Shown here: positions 7,095 to 31,800 of the stretch, one piece after another
Layout: each line of letters opens with the position of its first letter
Numbering within the stretch: the stretch's first letter is position 1
DNA from: an uncultured bacterium
Lineage (GTDB): Bacteria > Hinthialibacterota > Hinthialibacteria > Hinthialibacterales > JAKPRU01
Assembly (NCBI GenBank): GCA_964612675.1
Contig: CAZTDD010000002.1
Location: 138,461-202,460 of the forward strand
Reading direction: 5' to 3'
DNA: 64,000 nucleotides
The notes under the pieces: model-generated
Database searches by the model: none
What the model was told of the DNA's origin: nothing
The model's input: only the letters and a program-made list of their open reading frames with translations
Made by a program: the position numbers and the translations under genes

Positions 7095-8570
7095 TCAGTT
7101 CGGCTCCGTTTGTTTTGGAACGAGTGTATAGAAATGTAAGGGATTGCCCTCATAGTAGTTGTTCAGGACAGGATACGTCTCGACGAGATCCATCTCGTAA
7201 TACCCCCGCAGAACCGGTAGGCACGCCACCGATGTCTCCCAGCGCACGTAGTAGGAGGGCCTATAGCGCTCGACCTTCCATTCCAGCGTTTGCGTCCCCA
7301 TTTCGTCCGTAATGGGAAACAACCGAGTGGCCAAGGCGATTTGGTCGGCCTGCCGGCCCAGAATCACCTCATTGCTGTTTTCCTGTTTGTCGACGAAAGC
7401 GCGGATGTCCTTCGCCATCTCCATGAATGAGTAGGACGGGCCGGAAAGGTAGCGTACAATCCAAAATGAATTGACTGCGATACAGGCCGCCATGAAAGCA
7501 AGAAACAGGACCGCCGGCGCCCTCCTCGGTGCTTTTTCCAGGAAGTAATCCGCGATCCACGAAAGCAGGATCGTGACGGGAATCATCATGGGCAGATAGT
7601 AGCGGGGAGGAAAATATTGGTTCATCGCGATCATCGCGACCATCACGGCGATCCAGCCGATCATGAGGAGGATTAAGGGATTCCGCCGGAATTGAGGGCT
7701 AAAAAGGAAGAACAAACCCCCGAATGCCATCGCCAACGGATAAAAGATCCACCCCAAGTATTTCCCGAAATAGAGACTCTTTATGAGGCTATCGATGGCC
7801 CTCGAAAAGGAGAATTGAAGACGGGAAACGACGTTCAATTTCATGAAATAATGGAAATCTTCATAGTAAGGTCGTGCAAAAAGAAACCAATATATGAGCC
7901 CGATCGCCCCCAGGACGAACAGGAAAAGCCCCGTGTCCATCAGCCGTTGTTTCCCCCATTCGCCCCTCCCAACGAGTAAGGCCCCAAGCAGCAGAGGGAA
8001 CGCGAAAAGAGCACTGGCCTTCACGAGCAAGGCGGCTGCGAAGGCGATTGCGGAAAGAACGGGCCACAGGGCCGCATGTTTTTGACCGGGGCGTAGGGCG
8101 AAATACACGCCGAGCACGATAAAGAAAATCATCGGGATTTCCAGGATCGCCAGTCTGCTGAACGCGAACCATGTATAGTTCGTTGCCAACAGAAGCAGCG
8201 AAATCAGGGCCGCTCGACGACTGATATGCCGCCGAACAAGGCTATACATGAGCGGGAACATCAAAATGGAAAAGAACACTACCGTTAGTCGCGCAGAGGA
8301 AAGATGAAGGCCGAACAGGGTGAAAGAAACCAGCTGGAAAAGAAAGAACAAAGGCGTATTTATCGCCGGATTGAAGTCGCCGGGCACATACCATTCGCCT
8401 GTCAGCTCGTAGGCGATGGCATTTCGGGCGTACCACCCCTCATCGGTGTACAGAAGTCCCGACCAGGTCAGTTCTGTAGGGAAATCCGCCTCGAGGTGCA
8501 CAAACCGCAAGCCTGCAATCAGGCACAAGAAACATACCCATCCAACATACTGATAACGCTGATATCTCAT
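7095..8570 (-). CDS. GT39/ArnT-like membrane glycosyltransferase (dolichyl-phosphate-mannose-protein mannosyltransferase family)
   Basis: About 12 TM segments, N-terminal DEGWY-containing loop typical of PMT/ArnT family; start placed at the second Met to avoid overlap with the PSP1 gene. Confidence 0.55.
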   Translation of the reverse strand: MRYQRYQYVGWVCFLCLIAGLRFVHLEADFPTELTWSGLLYTDEGWYARNAIAYELTGEWYVPGDFNPAINTPLFFLFQLVSFTLFGLHLSSARLTVVFFSILMFPLMYSLVRRHISRRAALISLLLLATNYTWFAFSRLAILEIPMIFFIVLGVYFALRPGQKHAALWPVLSAIAFAAALLVKASALFAFPLLLGALLVGRGEWGKQRLMDTGLFLFVLGAIGLIYWFLFARPYYEDFHYFMKLNVVSRLQFSFSRAIDSLIKSLYFGKYLGWIFYPLAMAFGGLFFLFSPQFRRNPLILLMIGWIAVMVAMIAMNQYFPPRYYLPMMIPVTILLSWIADYFLEKAPRRAPAVLFLAFMAACIAVNSFWIVRYLSGPSYSFMEMAKDIRAFVDKQENSNEVILGRQADQIALATRLFPITDEMGTQTLEWKVERYRPSYYVRWETSVACLPVLRGYYEMDLVETYPVLNNYYEGNPLHFYTLVPKQTEPN

Positions 8571-8590
8571 TGTGGCGCTGTCGACGCTTT

Positions 8591-9403
8591 TCAGCCCGAG
8601 TCTTCCTGCGCGAATTGCACTTCTTGAAGCGACCACTCGCGCGGTGATTGACCGTCATCATATCGGGTGACGACTGTGCCCTTTATGAAGTTCTGATCGC
8701 AGACAGCGGCCGGTCCGGTTGGAGTTTGAACCCTCTCACCGTTTGCCGGGAAATTCCGCCGATATTTGCGGTAGGTTGAGACTTCGTACGCCAGACAGCA
8801 CTTCAGGCGACCGCACATTCCGGAGAGTTTTGTCGGATTGAGGGCCAGGTTCTGCTCCTTGGCCATCTTGATGGTTATTGGGTCGAACTTCGTGATGAAG
8901 CGATTACAGCAGAGCTGCTCGCCGCACGGGCCGAACCCTCCCGCTTTTCGGGAGCGGTCTCTGACGCCGATTTGTCGCATCTCGATGCGGGTCCGGAACA
9001 CGTGGGCAAGGTCCCGAACCAACTCACGAAAATCAATCCGTCCCTCCGCCGTGAAATAGAACCGAATCTTGCGACCGTCCAGCGTCTGCTCCACAAACGC
9101 CAGAATCATCGGCAGTTCCCGGTCCTTGATCTTCTGGAGGGCAACCGAAAAGGCCTCTTTTTCTCGTTCCCTGTTCTGATAAAACTCTGCTACATCGCCA
9201 TCCTCGGCCGGACGTATGAAAAACGCCTCCGGCTCCGGGGGCAACTCATCCAACCATTCATACTGATTTTGCAGCACGATCCCGAGTTCGCGATCCCCCT
9301 CAACTTCAACGACGCAGTACGACCCAGGTACAACGTCCATGGGATCGTCCTTAAAACGGGCTACCGCCCGGTATTCTCGGATACGCACATCCACTACGTT
9401 CAT
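8591..9403 (-). CDS. PSP1 C-terminal domain protein (RicT/YaaT-like)
   Basis: Cys-rich PSP1 domain (GPCGEQLCC...CGRLKCCLAYE); start chosen at MNVVDVRIREY with GAGG RBS. Confidence 0.7.
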   Translation of the reverse strand: MNVVDVRIREYRAVARFKDDPMDVVPGSYCVVEVEGDRELGIVLQNQYEWLDELPPEPEAFFIRPAEDGDVAEFYQNREREKEAFSVALQKIKDRELPMILAFVEQTLDGRKIRFYFTAEGRIDFRELVRDLAHVFRTRIEMRQIGVRDRSRKAGGFGPCGEQLCCNRFITKFDPITIKMAKEQNLALNPTKLSGMCGRLKCCLAYEVSTYRKYRRNFPANGERVQTPTGPAAVCDQNFIKGTVVTRYDDGQSPREWSLQEVQFAQEDSG

Positions 9404-9438
9404 TCGAACAGCCTCTCTGGAAACGGACCTTCCTACTA

Positions 9439-9780
9439 TCATTCAAAGGAAGACACGGCTTCATCCACGCTCGGATACCATTTGAATACCGTGTCCAACT
9501 TCGTCAATCGCAGAACATCCTCTACAGGAATCGATACATTGGCGAATCTCAAATCTCCGCTGTTTTTCGCCGCCCTCTGATAGTAACTTACCAGAATCGC
9601 GATCACAGTACTATTGAGAAACTGCAGGTGCTCGCAATCCAGGACCACCTTGTAGCGTTCTTCCTCAAGCAAGGCGCTGCAGTTCTGGTCCAGTGCGTCG
9701 CTGAGCAGAGTGTCCAGCCTCTCCGGCACGGACAAAACAGTAACCTCTCCACGGTCGTCTCGACGGATGTCGTCTTTCAT
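9439..9780 (-). CDS. STAS-domain anti-sigma-factor antagonist
   Basis: SpoIIAA-like length and fold signature (LDCEHLQFLNSTVIAILV...LRFANVS). Confidence 0.55.
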   Translation of the reverse strand: MKDDIRRDDRGEVTVLSVPERLDTLLSDALDQNCSALLEEERYKVVLDCEHLQFLNSTVIAILVSYYQRAAKNSGDLRFANVSIPVEDVLRLTKLDTVFKWYPSVDEAVSSFE

Positions 9781-9923
9781 GTTTTCGCCCCGTTCGTTAC
9801 TCTATGATTCTGTTCGCCCCTAAGGTACTGATATCCACGGGTGGACACAAGAGCGAGAATTCTACTCGTCGTTCAAAGCCGCTGCAGGAGCTTTCCACTC
9901 GCACGGCTTCACGAGGATCCTCG

Positions 9924-10271
9924 ATGAAAATAGCAAAAGTTGTCGGTAGTGCGGTATCCACCATTAAGCACGAGTCCTATCTCGGAAAGAAACTATTGAT
10001 CGTTCAGCCTTTGGATCTGAACGGTAACCCCCTGGGAAACTCTACCATCGCCGTTGATTATTCCGGCGCCGGAGAAGGCGACTACGTTCTTGTCGGTTCC
10101 GCTCCGGGAGTCGCCCAGCAGGTCTTCGACATCGAAATCGCACCGATTCGCGAACTGATTATGGGGATCATCGATTATGTCGAGGTAGATGGACGCATCG
10201 TCATAAGTGCTGAACCCGGCCACCTGACCGAGACGTCAGGGCGGACACTTGCCGCAAGTGGAGCGGAATAG
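9924..10271 (+). CDS. EutN/CcmL-family bacterial microcompartment vertex (BMC-P) protein
   Basis: MKIAKVVGSAVSTIKHESYLGKKLLIVQP...AVDYSGAGEGDYVLVGSAPGVAQ matches the EutN/CcmL/PduN pentamer fold signature; upstream in-frame extension to 9804 is probably not translated. Confidence 0.6.
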   Translation: MKIAKVVGSAVSTIKHESYLGKKLLIVQPLDLNGNPLGNSTIAVDYSGAGEGDYVLVGSAPGVAQQVFDIEIAPIRELIMGIIDYVEVDGRIVISAEPGHLTETSGRTLAASGAE

Positions 10272-11144
10272 CGAAGTGCTCAGGTATCTGTCTCCACGGT
10301 CTGGAAATAAGGCCACAACGACCCCGTTCTTCATCTCTCGCGCGATCCGGCGTGCTCCGACATAGGCGGCACCGCTGGACATCCCCACAAAGATCCCTTC
10401 TCGCGTTGCCAGCCAGCGTGCCCCTTCGTACGCCTCCTCGTCGGTTACAATGACTTTGCCATCCAACAGGTCTTCCTCATACACTCGGGGAACAATCGCT
10501 TCAGTCATGTTCTTAAGACCTTGGATCTTGTGATTGACGGTCGGTTCTACAGCGATTGTCTTGGCGGACGGTTTCTTTTCGCGTAAATACCTACTGATGC
10601 CCATCAGCGTTCCTGTGGTCCCCATACCGGCGACAAACACCGTGAGTCCTCCCCCTGTTTGTCGAAGAATCTCCGGTCCGGTTGTTTCATAATGGGCCAG
10701 TGGATTCGCCGGATTGGCGAACTGGTTGGGCATATAATACATGTCCGGCTCTGCGTCGACGATCTCATGCGCTCGCCGTATTGCACCGTCCGTCCCCGCC
10801 AATGGATCGGTGATCTCCAGTTCCGCACCCAGCGCTTCCAAGGTGGCTCGACGCTCCATGCTGACACAACCCGGTAGAACCAGCTTCACTCGGTACCCGC
10901 GTGCGGCACCCACCATGGCCAATCCGATCCCGGTGTTTCCCGACGTCGGCTCGAGGATCGTTTTCTCCGCCGTCAGCAGACCCTCCTTTTCGGCCTGTCG
11001 GATCATGTAATACGCCGGACGATCCTTGACGGATCCGCCCGGATTGTTGCCCTCCAACTTCGCCAACAGATGTACGTCGGAGTCGCCGTCCCAGTTCCTG
11101 AGCTCTACCAACGGCGTTTCGCCGATGGAATCCAACACATTCAT
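10236..11144 (-). CDS. cysK: Cysteine synthase A (O-acetylserine sulfhydrylase)
   Basis: PLP-lysine motif SVKDR, GNTG loop and full-length PALP fold. Confidence 0.85.
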   Translation of the reverse strand: MNVLDSIGETPLVELRNWDGDSDVHLLAKLEGNNPGGSVKDRPAYYMIRQAEKEGLLTAEKTILEPTSGNTGIGLAMVGAARGYRVKLVLPGCVSMERRATLEALGAELEITDPLAGTDGAIRRAHEIVDAEPDMYYMPNQFANPANPLAHYETTGPEILRQTGGGLTVFVAGMGTTGTLMGISRYLREKKPSAKTIAVEPTVNHKIQGLKNMTEAIVPRVYEEDLLDGKVIVTDEEAYEGARWLATREGIFVGMSSGAAYVGARRIAREMKNGVVVALFPDRGDRYLSTSLFRSTCGKCPP

Positions 11145-11187
11145 CGGTCCTGTTCCCTTGAATACTGCCTCAAAATTCTCTCATCAA

Positions 11188-11374
11188 CCTAAATTCGGCA
11201 GTTGAATGGGCACCGCGGTTCCTGAGCCCGTCGAAGGGTCGCGCGGGCGTTGGTGATCGGCCTTTCGACAAGCTCGAGAACCGATCACCATTTGGGTGAA
11301 AACGGACAATGTACGATACTACCAAAAATCAGCGGTTTATCGTCGCAGCCACACCTTCAACTGCCGAATTTAGG
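11188..11374 (+). mobile_element. MITE-like element, copy 1 (187 bp) with perfect 19-bp terminal inverted repeats CCTAAATTCGGCAGTTGAA
   Basis: TIRs at 11188-11206 and 11356-11374; internal GGTGATCGG...CCGATCACC hairpin; second copy in reverse orientation at 14919-15106. Confidence 0.6.
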
Positions 11375-11450
11375 ATCAAAAACAATACAAGTGTCTGCAG
11401 CGTACAACACTCAAATCCGGGATTCCAGAGAATACCAACGGATTTGCGGG

Positions 11451-12737
11451 TTATTTCACGGATACTCCAAGTACGGCCTTGTCCTGTTCCAACACATAGC
11501 GATGGTACTCCTGGTTGCAGGCAGGTGAACCATCGCTCGCTGCATGGGCCACCCAGGCTTCCCCGGTAGAAGGATGAAAGATGGCACAATGCAGATTACT
11601 CTTCATCGAAACCGGCCGCTTGATCATCTCCATCAGGTTGTTCTCATCGACTTCGCCGTAGTGGTTCTCCAGTCTCTTCATGAAATGACCGAACCGGTCA
11701 ATGCCGGAAATCACAACGCAGTCTTCGGGAAGTAAGCCGAAGAATCCCAATTCCCTGTCGCTCGATTTGAAGACGATCTGGTGTTTGGCTTCTTCGACCT
11801 CCATTCCGGTCACCAGCACTTTTCCGCCGCCGGCATCCTTTTCGGGAGCCGCCGGAATGTCGAAGAATCCGAAGTTGGTGCCCGGTTCGATGAAGTGGAT
11901 TTGTTTGGGGGTGGCGTAGACTCCGCGCGCATCGGGGATCTTCGCGTCGGAAATGACGTAATAGTACTCGCACGTGCGTGGGGTATCCGCGAAGATGTCC
12001 ATGGCCTCTTTCAGCGTGGTTGCACGTTCGAGAGCGTCGCGGAGAAGCAGACTCATGGGCATTCCGTCGAAGAAACCTTGTCCCTGTCCACCCATCTCCC
12101 CGATTGCGATCTGCGCGTCGTTCATTCCTGTAATCGAACCGACAAAGCCCGCATAGGAGACATTCATAAAAGTCCTTGCTCCTTTAGGGCTTACGATCAT
12201 AAGAACGGCTCGATCCTGAAAGCCTACTTCGGTCATATAATCCAGTAGCCGGACGTGGTAGAGAGAACCCCCTCGCGTCGCTTTGCCGAACAATGACATA
12301 CCACTGCAATGGAATGCCTCCGGCATAAGATTCCCTGTTAGAACCTGCTCGAACTCTAATCCCGCTCCTTCAGCCAAACCTCGCAGCTCTTCCATGAATT
12401 TCTCGGGAATATGCGGCTTTAGGCGAGCGTGCATCGCACCTCGCAACATCTTGTACAGCTTGTATTCTTTCGATTCCGCGAGTTCCGACTGATTGTCGAC
12501 GATACTGAGCATGTTCTCCTTGACCATCTCACGTAGAAGAACGCCGTGTTGGTACCCCAGATCGTAGTAGTCGCCGGAGAGATGAAGCACCAGGGTTCCA
12601 TCGACTTTCTCGAGATATCCTTCTCCTTCGCGAGCGATGATTTCAGCGTTAACCGATGCGGACAGCAGGACGATCGCTGCCAGCGACCAAGGGATTAGTC
12701 GGAGAGCTGTTTTCATGAGTTTTCCTTTCTTTGACAC
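11451..12737 (-). CDS. Secreted peptidase C45 / acyl-CoA:6-APA acyltransferase-like Ntn-hydrolase
   Basis: Signal peptide; AFHCSGMSLFG block resembles the Gly-Cys autoprocessing/nucleophile site of C45 Ntn-hydrolases. Confidence 0.45.
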   Translation of the reverse strand: MSKKGKLMKTALRLIPWSLAAIVLLSASVNAEIIAREGEGYLEKVDGTLVLHLSGDYYDLGYQHGVLLREMVKENMLSIVDNQSELAESKEYKLYKMLRGAMHARLKPHIPEKFMEELRGLAEGAGLEFEQVLTGNLMPEAFHCSGMSLFGKATRGGSLYHVRLLDYMTEVGFQDRAVLMIVSPKGARTFMNVSYAGFVGSITGMNDAQIAIGEMGGQGQGFFDGMPMSLLLRDALERATTLKEAMDIFADTPRTCEYYYVISDAKIPDARGVYATPKQIHFIEPGTNFGFFDIPAAPEKDAGGGKVLVTGMEVEEAKHQIVFKSSDRELGFFGLLPEDCVVISGIDRFGHFMKRLENHYGEVDENNLMEMIKRPVSMKSNLHCAIFHPSTGEAWVAHAASDGSPACNQEYHRYVLEQDKAVLGVSVK

Positions 12738-12956
12738 TTCCCGGTCTCCCGTGTATTCGTGTTTCGATTGTGTCTGGAAGTCCGCATTTGTGCAAGTCCA
12801 ACGAAACAGGGTGAAATGACTGTGTTTCTCTCGAATCCCAGGACATGGGGGAGATAGGGTTGCGGTGATAGGGGGTTATAGCCTATGATTCTTCACTAAA
12901 CCACGGGTTGTATTTACCGGGTCGGGGCAGTCTGATTCTCAGTTGGAGGCCGTATT

Positions 12957-13295
12957 ATGCCGATCGTGAAATCCTGGATGCCATTATCTCGGATCGAGGT
13001 GAACAAGGTTCCCGAGCGAGGTGGGGTGTACGAACTGGGTGATGCCCGCAAGGAGGTCGTCTTTGTGGGTAAGGCGGAGGCAGGACAACTTCGCAAACAA
13101 CTCGCTTCGCACATCATGGACCGGAAGAACGCAGTGATCAAAGCCAAGGCGAAGCATTTCCGGTATGCCGCCAGCTCAAATGTCGGAAGCGAATACAACG
13201 CACTTCTCGAAGCCTACAAGAAAACGCATGGCGGCCGTCTACCGGAAGCCAATCAATCCGATTCCGGCCGGGAACCTCCGCCTTCCTTCGAGTAA
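12957..13295 (+). CDS. Small GIY-YIG-like domain protein (hypothetical)
   Basis: GVYELGDARKEVVFVGKA...LRKQLASH fits the GIY-x9-YIG-x-R-x3-H pattern; weak call. Confidence 0.3.
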   Translation: MPIVKSWMPLSRIEVNKVPERGGVYELGDARKEVVFVGKAEAGQLRKQLASHIMDRKNAVIKAKAKHFRYAASSNVGSEYNALLEAYKKTHGGRLPEANQSDSGREPPPSFE

Positions 13296-13606
13296 CTCGA
13301 GGTCATAGACTTCCCACCATAGGGATGCTCGGGAGAGTTGAGAGCGACCTCCGGGCTTCTCCGCAGGACCGTGCCAACCGTTTGTGGTCCCCGGCGGGTT
13401 AGGCGAACTCGGTGTCATTATGTTCAGTCCATCCTCCAGCTCATCGCAGCGCTGTGTCCACGACCGGGATCTCCAAGATCTTATACTCCACCGATCTGAC
13501 CCTTCGCCTCTCCACCCATATCGGCACAAGACTCAGCCCAACATTCCAGAACCCCCGGCCGATGAGTAGAATCCTTAGACTAAAGTAGATTCGTAGGGAG
13601 AAACAC

Positions 13607-14080
13607 GTGTCTTTAGCCGGTGAATTGAATCGAAATTGCCCCGTCTGCGGCGGCGAAATGAATGTACGTGGAGCAGATATCTGCTGTGGGGAGGAGGATC
13701 GTTATCTTCTTGGGCAACTCCGTGCCTTTGTGCGCTCGAATCCAAATAAGAACGTCAATCTGGGGCAGGTTCTGGAGCATCTGTACGATCGTCTCGAACC
13801 GTACCTGGAGGAAAAGGGCATCAATCCTGACGATGTTGACCTGGACGAGGCTTTCGTTGAACTGGAGAAAAGGGTCCTGCGCTGGATCAACCGCAAAGAC
13901 ATATCCATCAGCGCGATTTCAGGAATGGCGATCTGTGAATCCTGTGGGGGTATGATCATGCGAGGCCGTACGCTCTGTAACAGCTGCCTTCGCAGCAAAG
14001 AGATCACCCAAGTTCGATCCTCCTGGACACCAGCCGACGGCCGGTATATTCCACGAGGAATGCACGTCAAACTTCGATAA
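13607..14080 (+). CDS. Double zinc-ribbon protein, paralog A (unknown function)
   Basis: N-terminal CPVCGG-x10-CC and C-terminal CESCGG-x9-CNSC; about 45% identical to the downstream neighbour. Confidence 0.45.
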   Translation: MSLAGELNRNCPVCGGEMNVRGADICCGEEDRYLLGQLRAFVRSNPNKNVNLGQVLEHLYDRLEPYLEEKGINPDDVDLDEAFVELEKRVLRWINRKDISISAISGMAICESCGGMIMRGRTLCNSCLRSKEITQVRSSWTPADGRYIPRGMHVKLR

Positions 14081-14204
14081 GCCGACCCCGGAATCGACTT
14101 ATCGTTTTTGTTTCGATTCCGCTATACTGTTCAAGTCTGGCTTGGAAGATCTTTCGTGCGGAGGTCGACGTCATAAACTGGGAAAATTCCCGGGAGGAGC
14201 GCCA

Positions 14205-14675
14205 ATGCCTGCTTTCGAAAAGAGCCTCGGAAATGTCTGCGTGATCTGCGGGGGTGAAATCACCAAGAAAGGCTCCGATATCTGTTGTTTCGATGAGGAC
14301 CAGTTTCTCTTATCGGAGCTGAAGGCCTACATTCGGCGCGATATTGAGCGAAAGGCCGATTTGGGCGAACTTTTGGAACATCTATACGAGCAACTCGGCC
14401 CCTTTCTGTCGGAACGAGGCATCGATCTCGATGAAATCGACCCGGACGAGGTATTCATAGAAATCGAGAAACGAATTCTTCGGTGGATTGCGCGCAAAGA
14501 AGTCACTGTTAGTGCCATCGATGGCCTTGCCATTTGCGAGAAATGTAACGCCATGATCATGCGCGGCCGTACGCTCTGCAATCAATGCCTTCGGGAAAAA
14601 GAGATGTCACAACTTCCCCCTGCATCCATCCAGTCAAATCCTCCCCCGAGAGGCGGAATGCATATTAAACGCTGA
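14205..14675 (+). CDS. Double zinc-ribbon protein, paralog B (unknown function)
   Basis: Same layout as paralog A (CVICGG...CC; CEKCN...CNQC; conserved LEHLY...RWI...SAI block); ATG at 14205 with GGAGG RBS, in-frame upstream extension to 14142. Confidence 0.45.
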   Translation: MPAFEKSLGNVCVICGGEITKKGSDICCFDEDQFLLSELKAYIRRDIERKADLGELLEHLYEQLGPFLSERGIDLDEIDPDEVFIEIEKRILRWIARKEVTVSAIDGLAICEKCNAMIMRGRTLCNQCLREKEMSQLPPASIQSNPPPRGGMHIKR

Positions 14676-14688
14676 ATCTCTCCTCCTT

Positions 14689-14898
14689 TCAGTGAAACGG
14701 CCAAATCCGGCATTGATACAGCATGACAAGTCCTGCAATGAACGAGATGAAACTCGGCAGAATCACAGAGGCTTTGACATAATCATTGATCCAGGGTTTA
14801 TCCACAATCCACAGCGAAACCGCGATCCCCGCTAAGCCTGCCACACTCAAGATAATGCTGAGCCGCCTGGTATGAGGACCTGTTGGTTTCGTGTCCAT
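14689..14898 (-). CDS. Small two-TM membrane protein (hypothetical)
   Basis: 69 aa with two hydrophobic helices; no recognisable family. Confidence 0.25.
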   Translation of the reverse strand: MDTKPTGPHTRRLSIILSVAGLAGIAVSLWIVDKPWINDYVKASVILPSFISFIAGLVMLYQCRIWPFH

Positions 14899-14918
14899 GT
14901 TGTGTCACTTCCCTTGTA

Positions 14919-15106
14919 CCTAAATTCGGCAGTTGAAAACAGTATGGCGGCTGCAAACCGTTCATGTTTCACAAGTAGTGATCATCCTTATCTGTCACCC
15001 ATTTGGTGATCGGTTCTTGAACTTCTCGAAAGGCCGATCACCAATACCCGTGCGGCCCTTCGACGGGCTCAGGAACCGCGCTCGGGTTTCAACTGCCGAT
15101 TTCAGG
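14919..15106 (-). mobile_element. MITE-like element, copy 2 (188 bp), inverted relative to copy 1
   Basis: Reverse complement aligns to 11188-11374 at about 85% over the first ~120 bp; TIRs CCTAAATTCGGCAGTTGAA / TTCAACTGCCGATTTCAGG. Confidence 0.6.
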
Positions 15107-15117
15107 TTGTACGGATA

Positions 15118-17052
15118 TCAGTTCGATCCTATCTCTCTTTCGGTGACTACACGGAATTCCAATGGGGCGAGCTCCACCTCGAACGATTCTTCTCCAAACC
15201 GGACTCCGGTCTTCGTCTCGGTAGGCAAGCTGTTGTACAAAACGACCGACCCGTCGGCCAACTTTGTTGAGTAGACACCGTCTCTCTCCGCCTCCGGTGA
15301 GAGCATTCCCGTCCACGGGAATCCCTCGCCTTCCAGCAGAACAAACAGTCTCTCTGCAAACTCCGCGTAGTCCCGTTCCGAAGGAAGTCCATAAAGCGCC
15401 CTGTACCCCTGCTCGATAGAACGAAAAGCAAGCGTTTTTGTGCGTCCCTGTTCATCTGTCATTTCCGCCGTATCCGCGTCGCTCGCGTGGACGATTTCAA
15501 CACCGCCATTTTTCACAAATCGCCTTACCGACTTTTCCGCACTCTCGTCCATCGGCGACATCGGAAGGCGGATCAGAACGCGGTAGTTTTCGAGCAAGCC
15601 GTCTGCGATCATCGTCTCATCCAGGACATCGAACTCCACCTGGTCCCGCAGTCGTTTGAGCCAAGAGTAGTAGACGGCCTTGCGATCCGAGGAAAGGCGC
15701 AGGATTCTCTCCGGATAAAACACCGCCACCCGTATCATTGGCCTCGAACGCGTCAATAGAGGCGCGTACCGATAATACACTTCCAGTGCATCGCGCCCCG
15801 ATGCCGTCCCGTATTTCGTGATAATGTCGAACAAACCCCGGAACCCCAGACCTTTCGCGCCGCCCGACAGCGTGTTGAAGAACCGGCCGGGGACCCCCTT
15901 TTCGCTGTTTAGGATTCGTTCCTCTGTGCCGTACGGAACCCCATAGCCCCGCGCCGCAGAAGACAGCCGCACGGATCGCACGAATCCATCGAGAAACGCG
16001 TCGCTCATTGCGATACACCAAAGGCCGGCATTAAATTCCCGAGCCGCTTTCGTCAGCGCCGTCGGATTCACCCCGCGTTCACGCTGTTCGTCCCCGGGCA
16101 CCACAATATCCAAACGCGCGCCCGGGAATAACTGGCGGGCTTCTTGCAGCCAAAATCTCACATAATTGGTCACCGAGTCTTCATACCAATGGACAAAATC
16201 GGCAAAGCGAATTTGGTACACTTCGTCCAGTTCCTCGATGTCACCCAACACCTCTCCCGCCAAGGGGTCGCCCGGAAGGCTGATGAGGTTGCCTGTGCAG
16301 GTGGCGATCCGGTCCACGGACGCGTGAGGGATACCCCAGGCTGCCGCAACGTTCTCGGCACTTCCGTGCTTCTGTCTGAGCCAGTTTCGGAAATCGTCGC
16401 GGGCGTACCGATCCCCCGCCCACCATCCCGGATGCGCGTGGGTTGTATCCGGGCACTCGAGCCCCGGTTCTACAGGAAAGCCCGCTTCGCCGCATTTTCC
16501 ACAAAATCCCAGACGGATCGGTCCCAACGACTCTCGGTGTCGATGACAAAACTCGGCGGTTTTTCGCAGAAAGCGTCGGATGTGCGGCCGAAGATGGGGA
16601 TTCCAGATGCTTTGAACCGGCGTTTCCATATCGTGTTCCAAACACCGGAGAAAAACACTGTCCCCGGAATTTCGAAACCAGGCCGGCGTCGAGTACATGG
16701 GATGCGCCATCAATACCGGCGTCCACTTGAGATCGTTCCGCTGAAGAGCGCTTCGCAAACCGATGTACATATCGAATTGGGCATCCCCCGGACCGTCACA
16801 CTCCACCTCGCTCCAATGCACATGCGAGACCAGTCCGGTGATCCCGATGAACTTCATCATCTCGAACCGCTCTTCTTTCAGGAACTGGCTTGGCGGCCAT
16901 CCCATCGTTTGCCACAGATGGGTCACCTGATAGCCCTGCGGTGGTTCGATCCGTCGAAATTCGATATCCAGACCGGGACCTTGAACGGATTGCTGTCCCC
17001 ACACTGGGATTGTCACGCTACACAGTAAGCAGGTAATCCATCTTGTTCGCAC
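15118..17052 (-). CDS. Secreted glycoside-hydrolase-like protein (GH42-like TIM barrel plus trimerisation-type domain)
   Basis: Signal peptide; size and motif distribution reminiscent of GH42/GH35 beta-galactosidases; family not certain. Confidence 0.35.
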   Translation of the reverse strand: MRTRWITCLLCSVTIPVWGQQSVQGPGLDIEFRRIEPPQGYQVTHLWQTMGWPPSQFLKEERFEMMKFIGITGLVSHVHWSEVECDGPGDAQFDMYIGLRSALQRNDLKWTPVLMAHPMYSTPAWFRNSGDSVFLRCLEHDMETPVQSIWNPHLRPHIRRFLRKTAEFCHRHRESLGPIRLGFCGKCGEAGFPVEPGLECPDTTHAHPGWWAGDRYARDDFRNWLRQKHGSAENVAAAWGIPHASVDRIATCTGNLISLPGDPLAGEVLGDIEELDEVYQIRFADFVHWYEDSVTNYVRFWLQEARQLFPGARLDIVVPGDEQRERGVNPTALTKAAREFNAGLWCIAMSDAFLDGFVRSVRLSSAARGYGVPYGTEERILNSEKGVPGRFFNTLSGGAKGLGFRGLFDIITKYGTASGRDALEVYYRYAPLLTRSRPMIRVAVFYPERILRLSSDRKAVYYSWLKRLRDQVEFDVLDETMIADGLLENYRVLIRLPMSPMDESAEKSVRRFVKNGGVEIVHASDADTAEMTDEQGRTKTLAFRSIEQGYRALYGLPSERDYAEFAERLFVLLEGEGFPWTGMLSPEAERDGVYSTKLADGSVVLYNSLPTETKTGVRFGEESFEVELAPLEFRVVTEREIGSN

Positions 17053-19243: not shown

Positions 19244-19310
19244 ATCCGTCCGATAAACCGACCTTCTCCCGTGAGACAGGAGACAAATACAAAGGCAATA
19301 TCGTTAAGTT

Positions 19311-19382
19311 CGGGAGGGCGAAGCTCCTGCTGAGCCGGATTCTTTTTGACGCACGCGGCTCAGCAGGAGCTTCGCCCTCCCG
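19311..19382. terminator. Perfect 27-bp-stem hairpin (REP-like family GGGAGGGCGAAGCTCCYGCTGAGCCG), probable bidirectional terminator between convergent genes
   Basis: CGGGAGGGCGAAGCTCCTGCTGAGCCG...CGGCTCAGCAGGAGCTTCGCCCTCCCG; related copies at 31651-31720 and a half-copy at 52572-52598. Confidence 0.55.
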
Positions 19383-19453
19383 AGACCACCCGAGAAGTCG
19401 TTCGCTCAATGATATCGGATATAGAATGGCTTGAAAAAAACAGGCTTACCGGA

Positions 19454-31650: not shown

Positions 31651-31720
31651 CGGGAGGGCGAAGCTCCCGCTGAGCCGCATAGAAAAAGAAGAACCTGGCT
31701 CAGTAGGATCTTCGCCCTCC
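31651..31720. repeat. REP-like imperfect hairpin of the GGGAGGGCGAAGCTCC family in the sucC/C25 divergent intergenic region
   Basis: CGGGAGGGCGAAGCTCCCGCTGAGCCG...GGCTCAGTAGGATCTTCGCCCTCCC. Confidence 0.5.
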
Positions 31721-31800
31721 CACGGATAGCCAGTGTATTCTCAACTTGACGACATTCGATGAGCCTCCCGGCGAGCCGAGAACGACTGTCGAATCTTCTT

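Follow-up and report, generated by a model that had tools for sequence, protein, structure and literature searches.

Two inverted elements and their target duplications

The stretch of DNA analysed here, called the window, is 64 kb of contig CAZTDD010000002.1 from an uncultured bacterium. It carries two short elements in opposite orientation, MITE A and MITE B (miniature inverted-repeat transposable elements), one on each side of a 3.5-kb block of five genes. We consider it very probable that both are non-autonomous MITEs of the IS1380 family that were mobilised in trans and inserted independently beside an old gene block. The parts of the two elements, including their terminal inverted repeats (TIRs) and target site duplications (TSDs), are as follows.

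11188-11374, plus strand: MITE A, 187 bp, very probably a non-autonomous IS1380-family element
14919-15106, minus strand: MITE B, 188 bp, lying as the reverse complement of A
11188-11206, plus strand: left TIR of MITE A, CCTAAATTCGGCAGTTGAA, 19 nt
11356-11374, minus strand: right TIR of MITE A, a 19/19 match
11183-11187, no strand: left TSD copy of MITE A, ATCAA
11375-11379, no strand: right TSD copy of MITE A, ATCAA
14914-14918, no strand: left TSD copy of MITE B, TTGTA
15107-15111, no strand: right TSD copy of MITE B, TTGTA
11252-11289, plus strand: hairpin inside MITE A, GGTGATCGG, a 20-nt loop and CCGATCACC, with stems at 11252-11260 and 11281-11289
15005-15042, minus strand: hairpin inside MITE B, with stems at 15005-15013 and 15034-15042
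11217-11237 (A, plus strand) and 15057-15077 (B): 21-nt core GGTTCCTGAGCCCGTCGAAGG, exact in both copies
11264-11275: inverted variant of the core motif in the hairpin loop of A, TTCGACAAGCTC, with its B counterpart at 15019-15030

Both ends of A carry a perfect copy of the terminus CCTAAATTCGGCAGTTGAA, and the two ends of B match it at 19/19 and 17/19 positions. When the whole window was searched at up to 3 mismatches, only these four MITE termini were found, against 0 expected from 100 shuffles. Each copy is enclosed by its own perfect pair of 5-bp direct repeats (ATCAA-A-ATCAA and TTGTA-B-TTGTA). By simple arithmetic, such a match of the two flanks has a chance of about 1/1024 per copy, and the fact that each copy has its own matched TSD indicates two separate transposition events. 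Copies A and B are 85% identical in the first 115 nt and 77% identical (150/195) over the full length, and their longest perfectly identical run is only about 25 nt. The hairpin stems GGTGATCGG/CCGATCACC are the same in both copies, and the loops differ at 3 positions. As single-stranded DNA, MITE A folds at -49.3 kcal/mol (z = -6.9) and MITE B at -42.8 kcal/mol (z = -6.5), both relative to shuffled controls. The open frames within A and B are only short pseudo open reading frames (pseudo-ORFs) with no family match, and the elements have no coding capacity.

An earlier reading of this DNA from the letters alone, called here the sequence-only reading, had placed two inverted elements at 11188-11374 and 14919-15106, with 19-bp TIRs, a shared internal hairpin and an identity of about 85%, and had called them MITE-like and non-autonomous. 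The positions, the TIRs and the hairpin were all found as described, and the MITE-like character was borne out, the elements being now placed in the IS1380 family. The identity figure holds for the first 115 nt and not for the whole length. The perfect 5-bp repeats around each copy had been overlooked. In size, TIRs, TSDs, mobility and the existence of autonomous relatives with the same terminus, A and B conform to the structure expected of MITEs.

One reading frame is open through both copies (11170-11325 on the minus strand and 14933-15274 on the plus strand), and its peptide follows the pattern …HPxGDRF…SKGRSPxPxRPFDGLRNR…STAxFRL. A search with the peptide of this shared frame returned a single match, P0001 (MPARPFDGLRNRASHSTAEFR, then IKVDKK...), a pseudo-ORF on a different NCBI contig that reads out of the terminus into a different flank. 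By this peptide match, P0001 marks a third copy of the A/B subfamily. The sequence-only reading had named copy number and TSDs as the points to check: the TSDs are present at both copies, and P0001, on another contig, is the one further copy of the subfamily documented so far. MITE copies of this kind seed spurious 'hypothetical proteins', of which P0001 is an example. For annotation, A and B should be masked as repeats; the short-read contigs L104, L105 and L106 all break inside them.

The bracketed genes and the filled and empty sites

The genes around and between the two elements are listed below.

10236-11144: cysK-like pyridoxal phosphate (PLP) enzyme gene, adjoining MITE A
11451-14898, no strand: the bracketed block, five genes, not part of the mobile unit
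11451-12716, minus strand: C45/AAT hydrolase (PF03417; orthologues are named C45)
12957-13295, plus strand: DUF7508 miniprotein, 112 aa (Pfam DUF7508, E 6e-15)
13607-14080 and 14205-14675, plus strand: zinc-ribbon paralogues (50% identity, E 8e-61)
14689-14898, minus strand: ORF for a 69-aa membrane protein

The C45 Ntn-hydrolase of the sequence-only reading was confirmed by PF03417 and by its C45-named orthologues, the paralogy of its two tandem zinc-ribbon proteins by their alignment, and its tiny protein gene corresponds to the 69-aa ORF. Its GIY-YIG-like miniprotein did not hold up, as this 112-aa protein belongs to DUF7508 and its sole link to GIY-YIG, a match to the UvrC N-domain, is non-significant (E 0.48); the label was dropped.

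MITE A lies 76 nt past the C45 stop codon and 43 nt ahead of the cysK start codon. MITE B lies 11 nt from the stop codon of a GH-like gene and 20 nt from the start codon of the 69-aa ORF, and the spacer between these two genes would be 26 nt without it. Both elements thus occupy intergenic spacers of minus-strand transcription units, and their orientations relative to the surrounding minus-strand genes are opposite to each other. Any effect of the insertions on the cysK gene or on the 69-aa gene would be conjectural.

The A site was found both filled and empty. The empty allele is on L103, a Logan contig from run SRR7048224 that was retrieved via a look-up with the cysK-like protein. It matches window positions 8118-11187 and 11375-12954 at 100% identity (about 4.6 kb), with BLAST segments that overlap by 5 bp, and it lacks exactly MITE A and one ATCAA. 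A single ATCAA remains, and the distance from the C45 gene to cysK is 114 nt. Filled alleles were seen in SRR7048220 and SRR7048218. In SRR7048220 MITE A is present with 100%-identical flanks, whereas it is precisely absent in SRR7048224. The contig L105, from a sister run, ends inside MITE A, so its A site is filled, and by the same token the contigs L104 and L106, from two sister samples, which end inside MITE B, have a filled B site. The alleles of the A site are exactly empty or exactly 187 bp + 5 bp, with no intermediate. A site that is polymorphic in this way within one population shows recent mobility of MITE A, and the presence of the block in L103 without MITE A means that the block predates the arrival of the element. 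As to the extent of the contigs, L103 ends at window position 12954, 2 nt short of the DUF7508 start codon, and L105 continues straight past this point.

A more distant comparison was available in L230 (GCA_964416475.1), a relative whose C45 protein is 81% identical and whose nucleotide identity is about 74%. This relative is collinear with the window over PSP1-STAS-EutN-C45-DUF7508-ZnR-ZnR-69aa-GH-like (ZnR, zinc ribbon), in the same order and orientation. No terminus was found in L230 within 5 mismatches, and both MITE sites are empty. The sequence-only reading had named a related genome with the same block and without the elements as the outcome that would refute it, and this is what L230 carries. 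Together with L103, this element-free synteny shows that the block is ancestral and that the elements came later and separately. The GC content of the block (0.49-0.58, vs 0.51-0.60 in the flanks) is unremarkable and gives no compositional break. The window as a whole is ordinary chromosomal DNA that includes prfA, sucC, trkH, sulfatase and PorU-like genes; the nearest named relatives of its prfA are about 60-62% identical (Omnitrophota, Hinthialibacter, Sumerlaeaceae). In annotation, the 3.5-kb block is best treated as part of the ordinary chromosome, inherited vertically, instead of as a mobile islet.

The core of the block, ZnR-DUF7508/C45, is kept in the more distant L231-L233, in a different neighbourhood. 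A divergent C45/DUF7508 pair followed by one or two zinc-ribbon proteins of about 157 aa with two CxxC motifs is kept down to 71% C45 identity. The conservation of the C45/DUF7508/zinc-ribbon set even where the surrounding genes differ suggests, from gene order, a functional gene cluster.

Some differences in gene content were also seen. The cysK-like gene is absent from L230, where C45 and EutN are 5 bp apart, and present in the MITE-free L103, which marks an independent gain or loss of a gene at this junction. In the window, the cysK-like gene and the EutN ORF are convergent, and their 3' ends overlap by 36 bp. An extra 102-aa ORF lies in L230 (3057-3365) between the DUF7508 and zinc-ribbon genes. 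Opposite it, the window has a 310-bp gap (13296-13606) with no called gene and no nucleotide similarity.

Termini shared with IS1380-type elements

We scanned genomes, one per species, for the exact 19-mer CCTAAATTCGGCAGTTGAA and found it in at least 102 genome loci (L001-L102) of at least 10 phyla. The hosts are Pseudomonadota (Legionella, Oceanospirillaceae and others), Verrucomicrobiota including Kiritimatiellia, Hydrogenedentota, Nitrospirota and Bdellovibrionota, as well as Acidobacteriota, Chlamydiota, Bacteroidota, Bacillota and Melainabacteria. Viral contigs contain neither this terminus nor the hairpin of the subfamily. A second, inverted terminus lies nearby in 44 of the loci listed; the two termini are 43-411 bp apart in 42 of these, and the other 2 are full-length elements. 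Perfect 5-bp TSDs flank 28 of the 44 paired loci and give the target rule W-T-N-A-W, with T2 and A4 in 28/28. The ATCAA of MITE A conforms to it. Among the matches listed, at least 16 clusters of short elements can be told apart, which have the same termini and unrelated interiors. When the MITE interior was compared with the 102 terminus-bearing loci listed, no match beyond about 21 nt was found, and thus no sibling or parent there.

Three full-length elements share the 19-mer, and all come from genomes other than that of the window: L101 (1835 bp), L020 (1819 bp) and L069 (1661 bp). Their hosts belong to Bacteroidota (Alistipes), Melainabacteria (Gastranaerophilaceae) and Verrucomicrobiota (Terrimicrobiaceae). 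Each has a single ORF of 515-539 aa that encodes a DDE transposase. Transposase homology was found in 6 of the 102 loci listed, namely these three and three with fragments, and autonomous copies are thus much rarer than short derivatives. Among the three transposases the identity is 40-46%, yet all three elements have the same 19-nt end, in a scan that selected for exactly this end. From these comparisons, the conservation of the terminus appears unusually strong relative to that of the transposase.

IS1380-family elements are about 1.5-2 kb long, have one transposase ORF and give target duplications of 4-5 bp. The full-length relatives have the length, the 5'-CC inverted repeats and the 5-bp TSDs of this family. 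Their three transposases match PF13701 (DDE_Tnp_1_4) with 73-104 bits, against a Pfam cut-off of 34.7, and their best NCBIfam match is NF033539, IS1380 family transposase, over the full length (E 1e-43 to 1e-47). In tblastn against plasmids, they align to annotated ISEcp1 and IS1380 transposases over about 80-86% of their length. We also read the right end of ISEcp1 from NZ_OW970534.1 (L229), upstream of blaCTX-M-15, as ...GAATTTAGG / ...ACGTGGAATTTAGG. Set against this end (CCTAAATTCCACGT), the terminus CCTAAATTCGGCAG... is identical in the outer 9/9 nt (CCTAAATTC). As far as profiles and alignments can tell, the parent transposases would be a distant subgroup of IS1380.

The 21-nt core was tried as a marker of the MITE and rejected, since it is a widespread short motif with no termini nearby. 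A metagenome scan with the exact core GGTTCCTGAGCCCGTCGAAGG gave more than 120 loci (L109-L228, 777 kb), and in those 777 kb no IS1380-type termini were found; only the core matches the MITE. The core reads V-P-E-P-V-E-G or, on the other strand, P-F-D-G-L-R-N, and 108 of 129 occurrences lie in long stop-free stretches. A second direct copy lies within 120 nt in 26 occurrences and an inverted partner within 120 nt in 6, and some loci (L180, L192) have 24-bp tandem arrays. No Rfam family and no literature match was found for it. The window also has a second repeat family at 19310-19383 and 31652-31721, whose members are nearly perfect palindromic hairpins with arms of the consensus GGGAGGGCGAAGCTCCYGCTGAGCC (28 nt at 100% and 25 nt at 88%). 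The loop of the 19310-19383 palindrome is a break point of the short-read contig L104.

Origin of the two elements

The matched TSDs, the empty sites and the shared termini can be brought together in a simple mechanism. A DDE transposase encoded outside the window, elsewhere in the host or in its community, would bind the 19-bp termini CCTAAATTCGGCAGTTGAA. Insertion would then proceed via staggered cuts 5 bp apart at an A/T-rich W-T-N-A-W target, which would be duplicated in the process, and both copies would have landed in minus-strand intergenic spacers flanking the vertically inherited block. Trans mobilisation by such a transposase would have taken place in this host. MITE A probably inserted very recently and is still segregating in the population, because it has perfect ends, a canonical target and a polymorphic site. 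MITE B is probably older than A, because it has two terminus mismatches and a non-canonical target and because all samples covering its site carry it. A and B diverge by 23%, which argues that neither was copied from the other, and hence that other master copies must exist in the genome.

Several observations weigh against this account. Only three copies of the exact subfamily are documented (A, B and P0001). No transposase related to the family of the element is found in the 64-kb window (tblastn best E 0.5), in line with the sequence-only reading, which had reported no transposase gene. The full-length relatives score 148-161 bits against NF033539, under its equivalog cut-off of 180, and their transposases are only 21-23% identical to that of ISEcp1. 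The MITE interior shares nothing beyond about 21 nt with the three full-length elements, so there is no support for an origin from a known parent by internal deletion. The TTGTA of MITE B departs from W-T-N-A-W at position 4, where the A was kept in 28/28 other duplications. For MITE B, look-ups with the GH-like, zinc-ribbon and 69-aa proteins gave only filled junctions and no empty allele. The empty A allele could in principle result from precise excision instead of being the ancestral state.

Among the other explanations, we examined whether the elements could be a structured-RNA gene of the host or a regulatory palindrome (a repetitive extragenic palindromic-like element, a terminator or a small RNA) and not mobile DNA at all. 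Both copies fold far better than shuffled sequence, both are intergenic and beside gene ends, and both include a short motif found widely in metagenomes. If read-through transcription occurs, it would give large hairpins from both copies. However, scans for sigma-70 promoter and terminator consensus found nothing inside A or B, which leaves a promoter-delivery or terminator role without support, and there is no Rfam match for either at E <= 1. The opposite orientations with respect to the minus-strand genes are ill-suited to a strand-specific role. Taken together, the lack of consensus signals and of an Rfam match and the opposite orientations give no evidence for a domesticated role. The presence of TSDs, the precise absence of MITE A in L103 and of both copies in L230, and the identity of the termini with those of transposase-bearing elements all speak for mobile DNA, and make this explanation very unlikely.

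The existence of full-length elements with identical termini could also suggest that A and B are remnants left by deletion, in situ, of a full-length insertion sequence at each site. We consider this highly improbable. The two copies share about 150 nt of interior and the hairpin layout, which is what copies of one short element would show. The interior is unlike the ends of any full-length element recovered, a third sibling exists in P0001, and the A site occurs only as exactly empty or as 187 bp + 5 bp.

The sequence-only reading had favoured a non-autonomous composite element, or a MITE-mediated insertion or inversion of the block. As a composite transposon, the inverted MITEs would be the arms that carried the five-gene block in; they do enclose 3.5 kb whose genes are accessory or of unknown function, and the transposases of the IS1380 family are known to move neighbouring DNA in the form of 'transposable modules' (PMC9330008). 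Insertion as a composite would leave one TSD at the two outer ends, but the outer flanks differ (ATCAA vs TTGTA) and match the inner flank of the same element instead. Moreover, L103 keeps the left edge of the block (C45 beside cysK) at 100% identity without MITE A, L230 has the complete block without either element, and there is no GC break across the block, so that a composite origin is extremely improbable. An inversion of the block by homologous recombination between the copies is no more credible: inverted repeats of 77-85% identity at 3.5 kb from each other are possible substrates, but the inner flanks would have been swapped and the 5-bp flanks mismatched, while both pairs are perfect, the gene order and strand of the block are those of the MITE-free L230, and the longest perfect identity between the copies is only about 25 nt. 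The reading of the block as a mobile islet is refuted, and what remains is ordinary biology apart from the good evidence of a very recent movement of MITE A.

The independently inserted IS1380-family MITEs that we favour can be compared with known systems. ISEcp1 mobilises blaCTX-M. Similar to ISEcp1 and IS1380, the window elements have 5'-CC termini, the outer 9 nt CCTAAATTC and a 5-bp TSD, and their full-length relatives are 1.66-1.84 kb long with one transposase ORF, PF13701 and NF033539 as best match. They differ from them in being only 187/188 bp long without a transposase, and from ISEcp1 in that the terminus is kept over 19 nt across phyla, of which only 9 nt are common with ISEcp1, and in that the window shows no sign of one-ended mobilisation of neighbouring genes. 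With bacterial MITEs (<600 bp), of which the MaeMITEs of Microcystis (PMC2779907) and the Tn3-derived TIMEs (PMC4133298) were taken for comparison, they share TIRs, TSDs, a non-coding and strongly self-folding sequence, an intergenic position, probably multiple copies and an apparent dependence on a transposase in trans. Unlike MaeMITEs and TIMEs, their termini belong to IS1380, and the same termini frame at least 16 unrelated interiors in different lineages. Two related elements flank genes here as in composite transposons and in the IS1380 transposable modules (ISPme1, ISEcp1), but there is no single outer TSD, and the elements and the block do not come and go as one unit. No description of IS1380-derived MITEs was found in the open-access literature, and the IS1380 subgroup of these termini may already be named in ISfinder. 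The terminus sequence, the motif peptides and the SRR run numbers were likewise not found in the open-access literature.

A broader picture would join all these observations. In it, an uncharacterised IS1380 subgroup would keep a 19-bp end invariant across at least 10 phyla despite a transposase identity of 40-46%, with short derivatives about 7:1 over autonomous elements among the matches listed. MITEs would have arisen repeatedly, giving at least 16 lineage-specific families with interiors unrelated to one another, the subfamily of the window would be built round a common metagenome motif, and the segregating insertion 43 nt upstream of cysK would alter its expression and be under selection. 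We regard this joint picture as doubtful in its entirety, with a probability well short of even.

A and B add an IS1380-type MITE subfamily that otherwise behaves like any bacterial MITE, and nothing here alters the existing knowledge of how MITEs work. The significance is modest and comes from two findings, the clean filled/empty pair and a terminus that does not vary across phyla. The 19-bp terminus together with the 5-bp W-T-N-A-W duplication provides a usable definition of an IS1380-subgroup MITE family, and the filled/empty pair shows the family to be currently active in an uncultivated lineage. One invariant terminus is common to elements of Legionella, Verrucomicrobiota, Bacteroidota, Bacillota and others, and this sharing of termini matters because relatives of IS1380, ISEcp1 for instance, are important mobilisers of genes.

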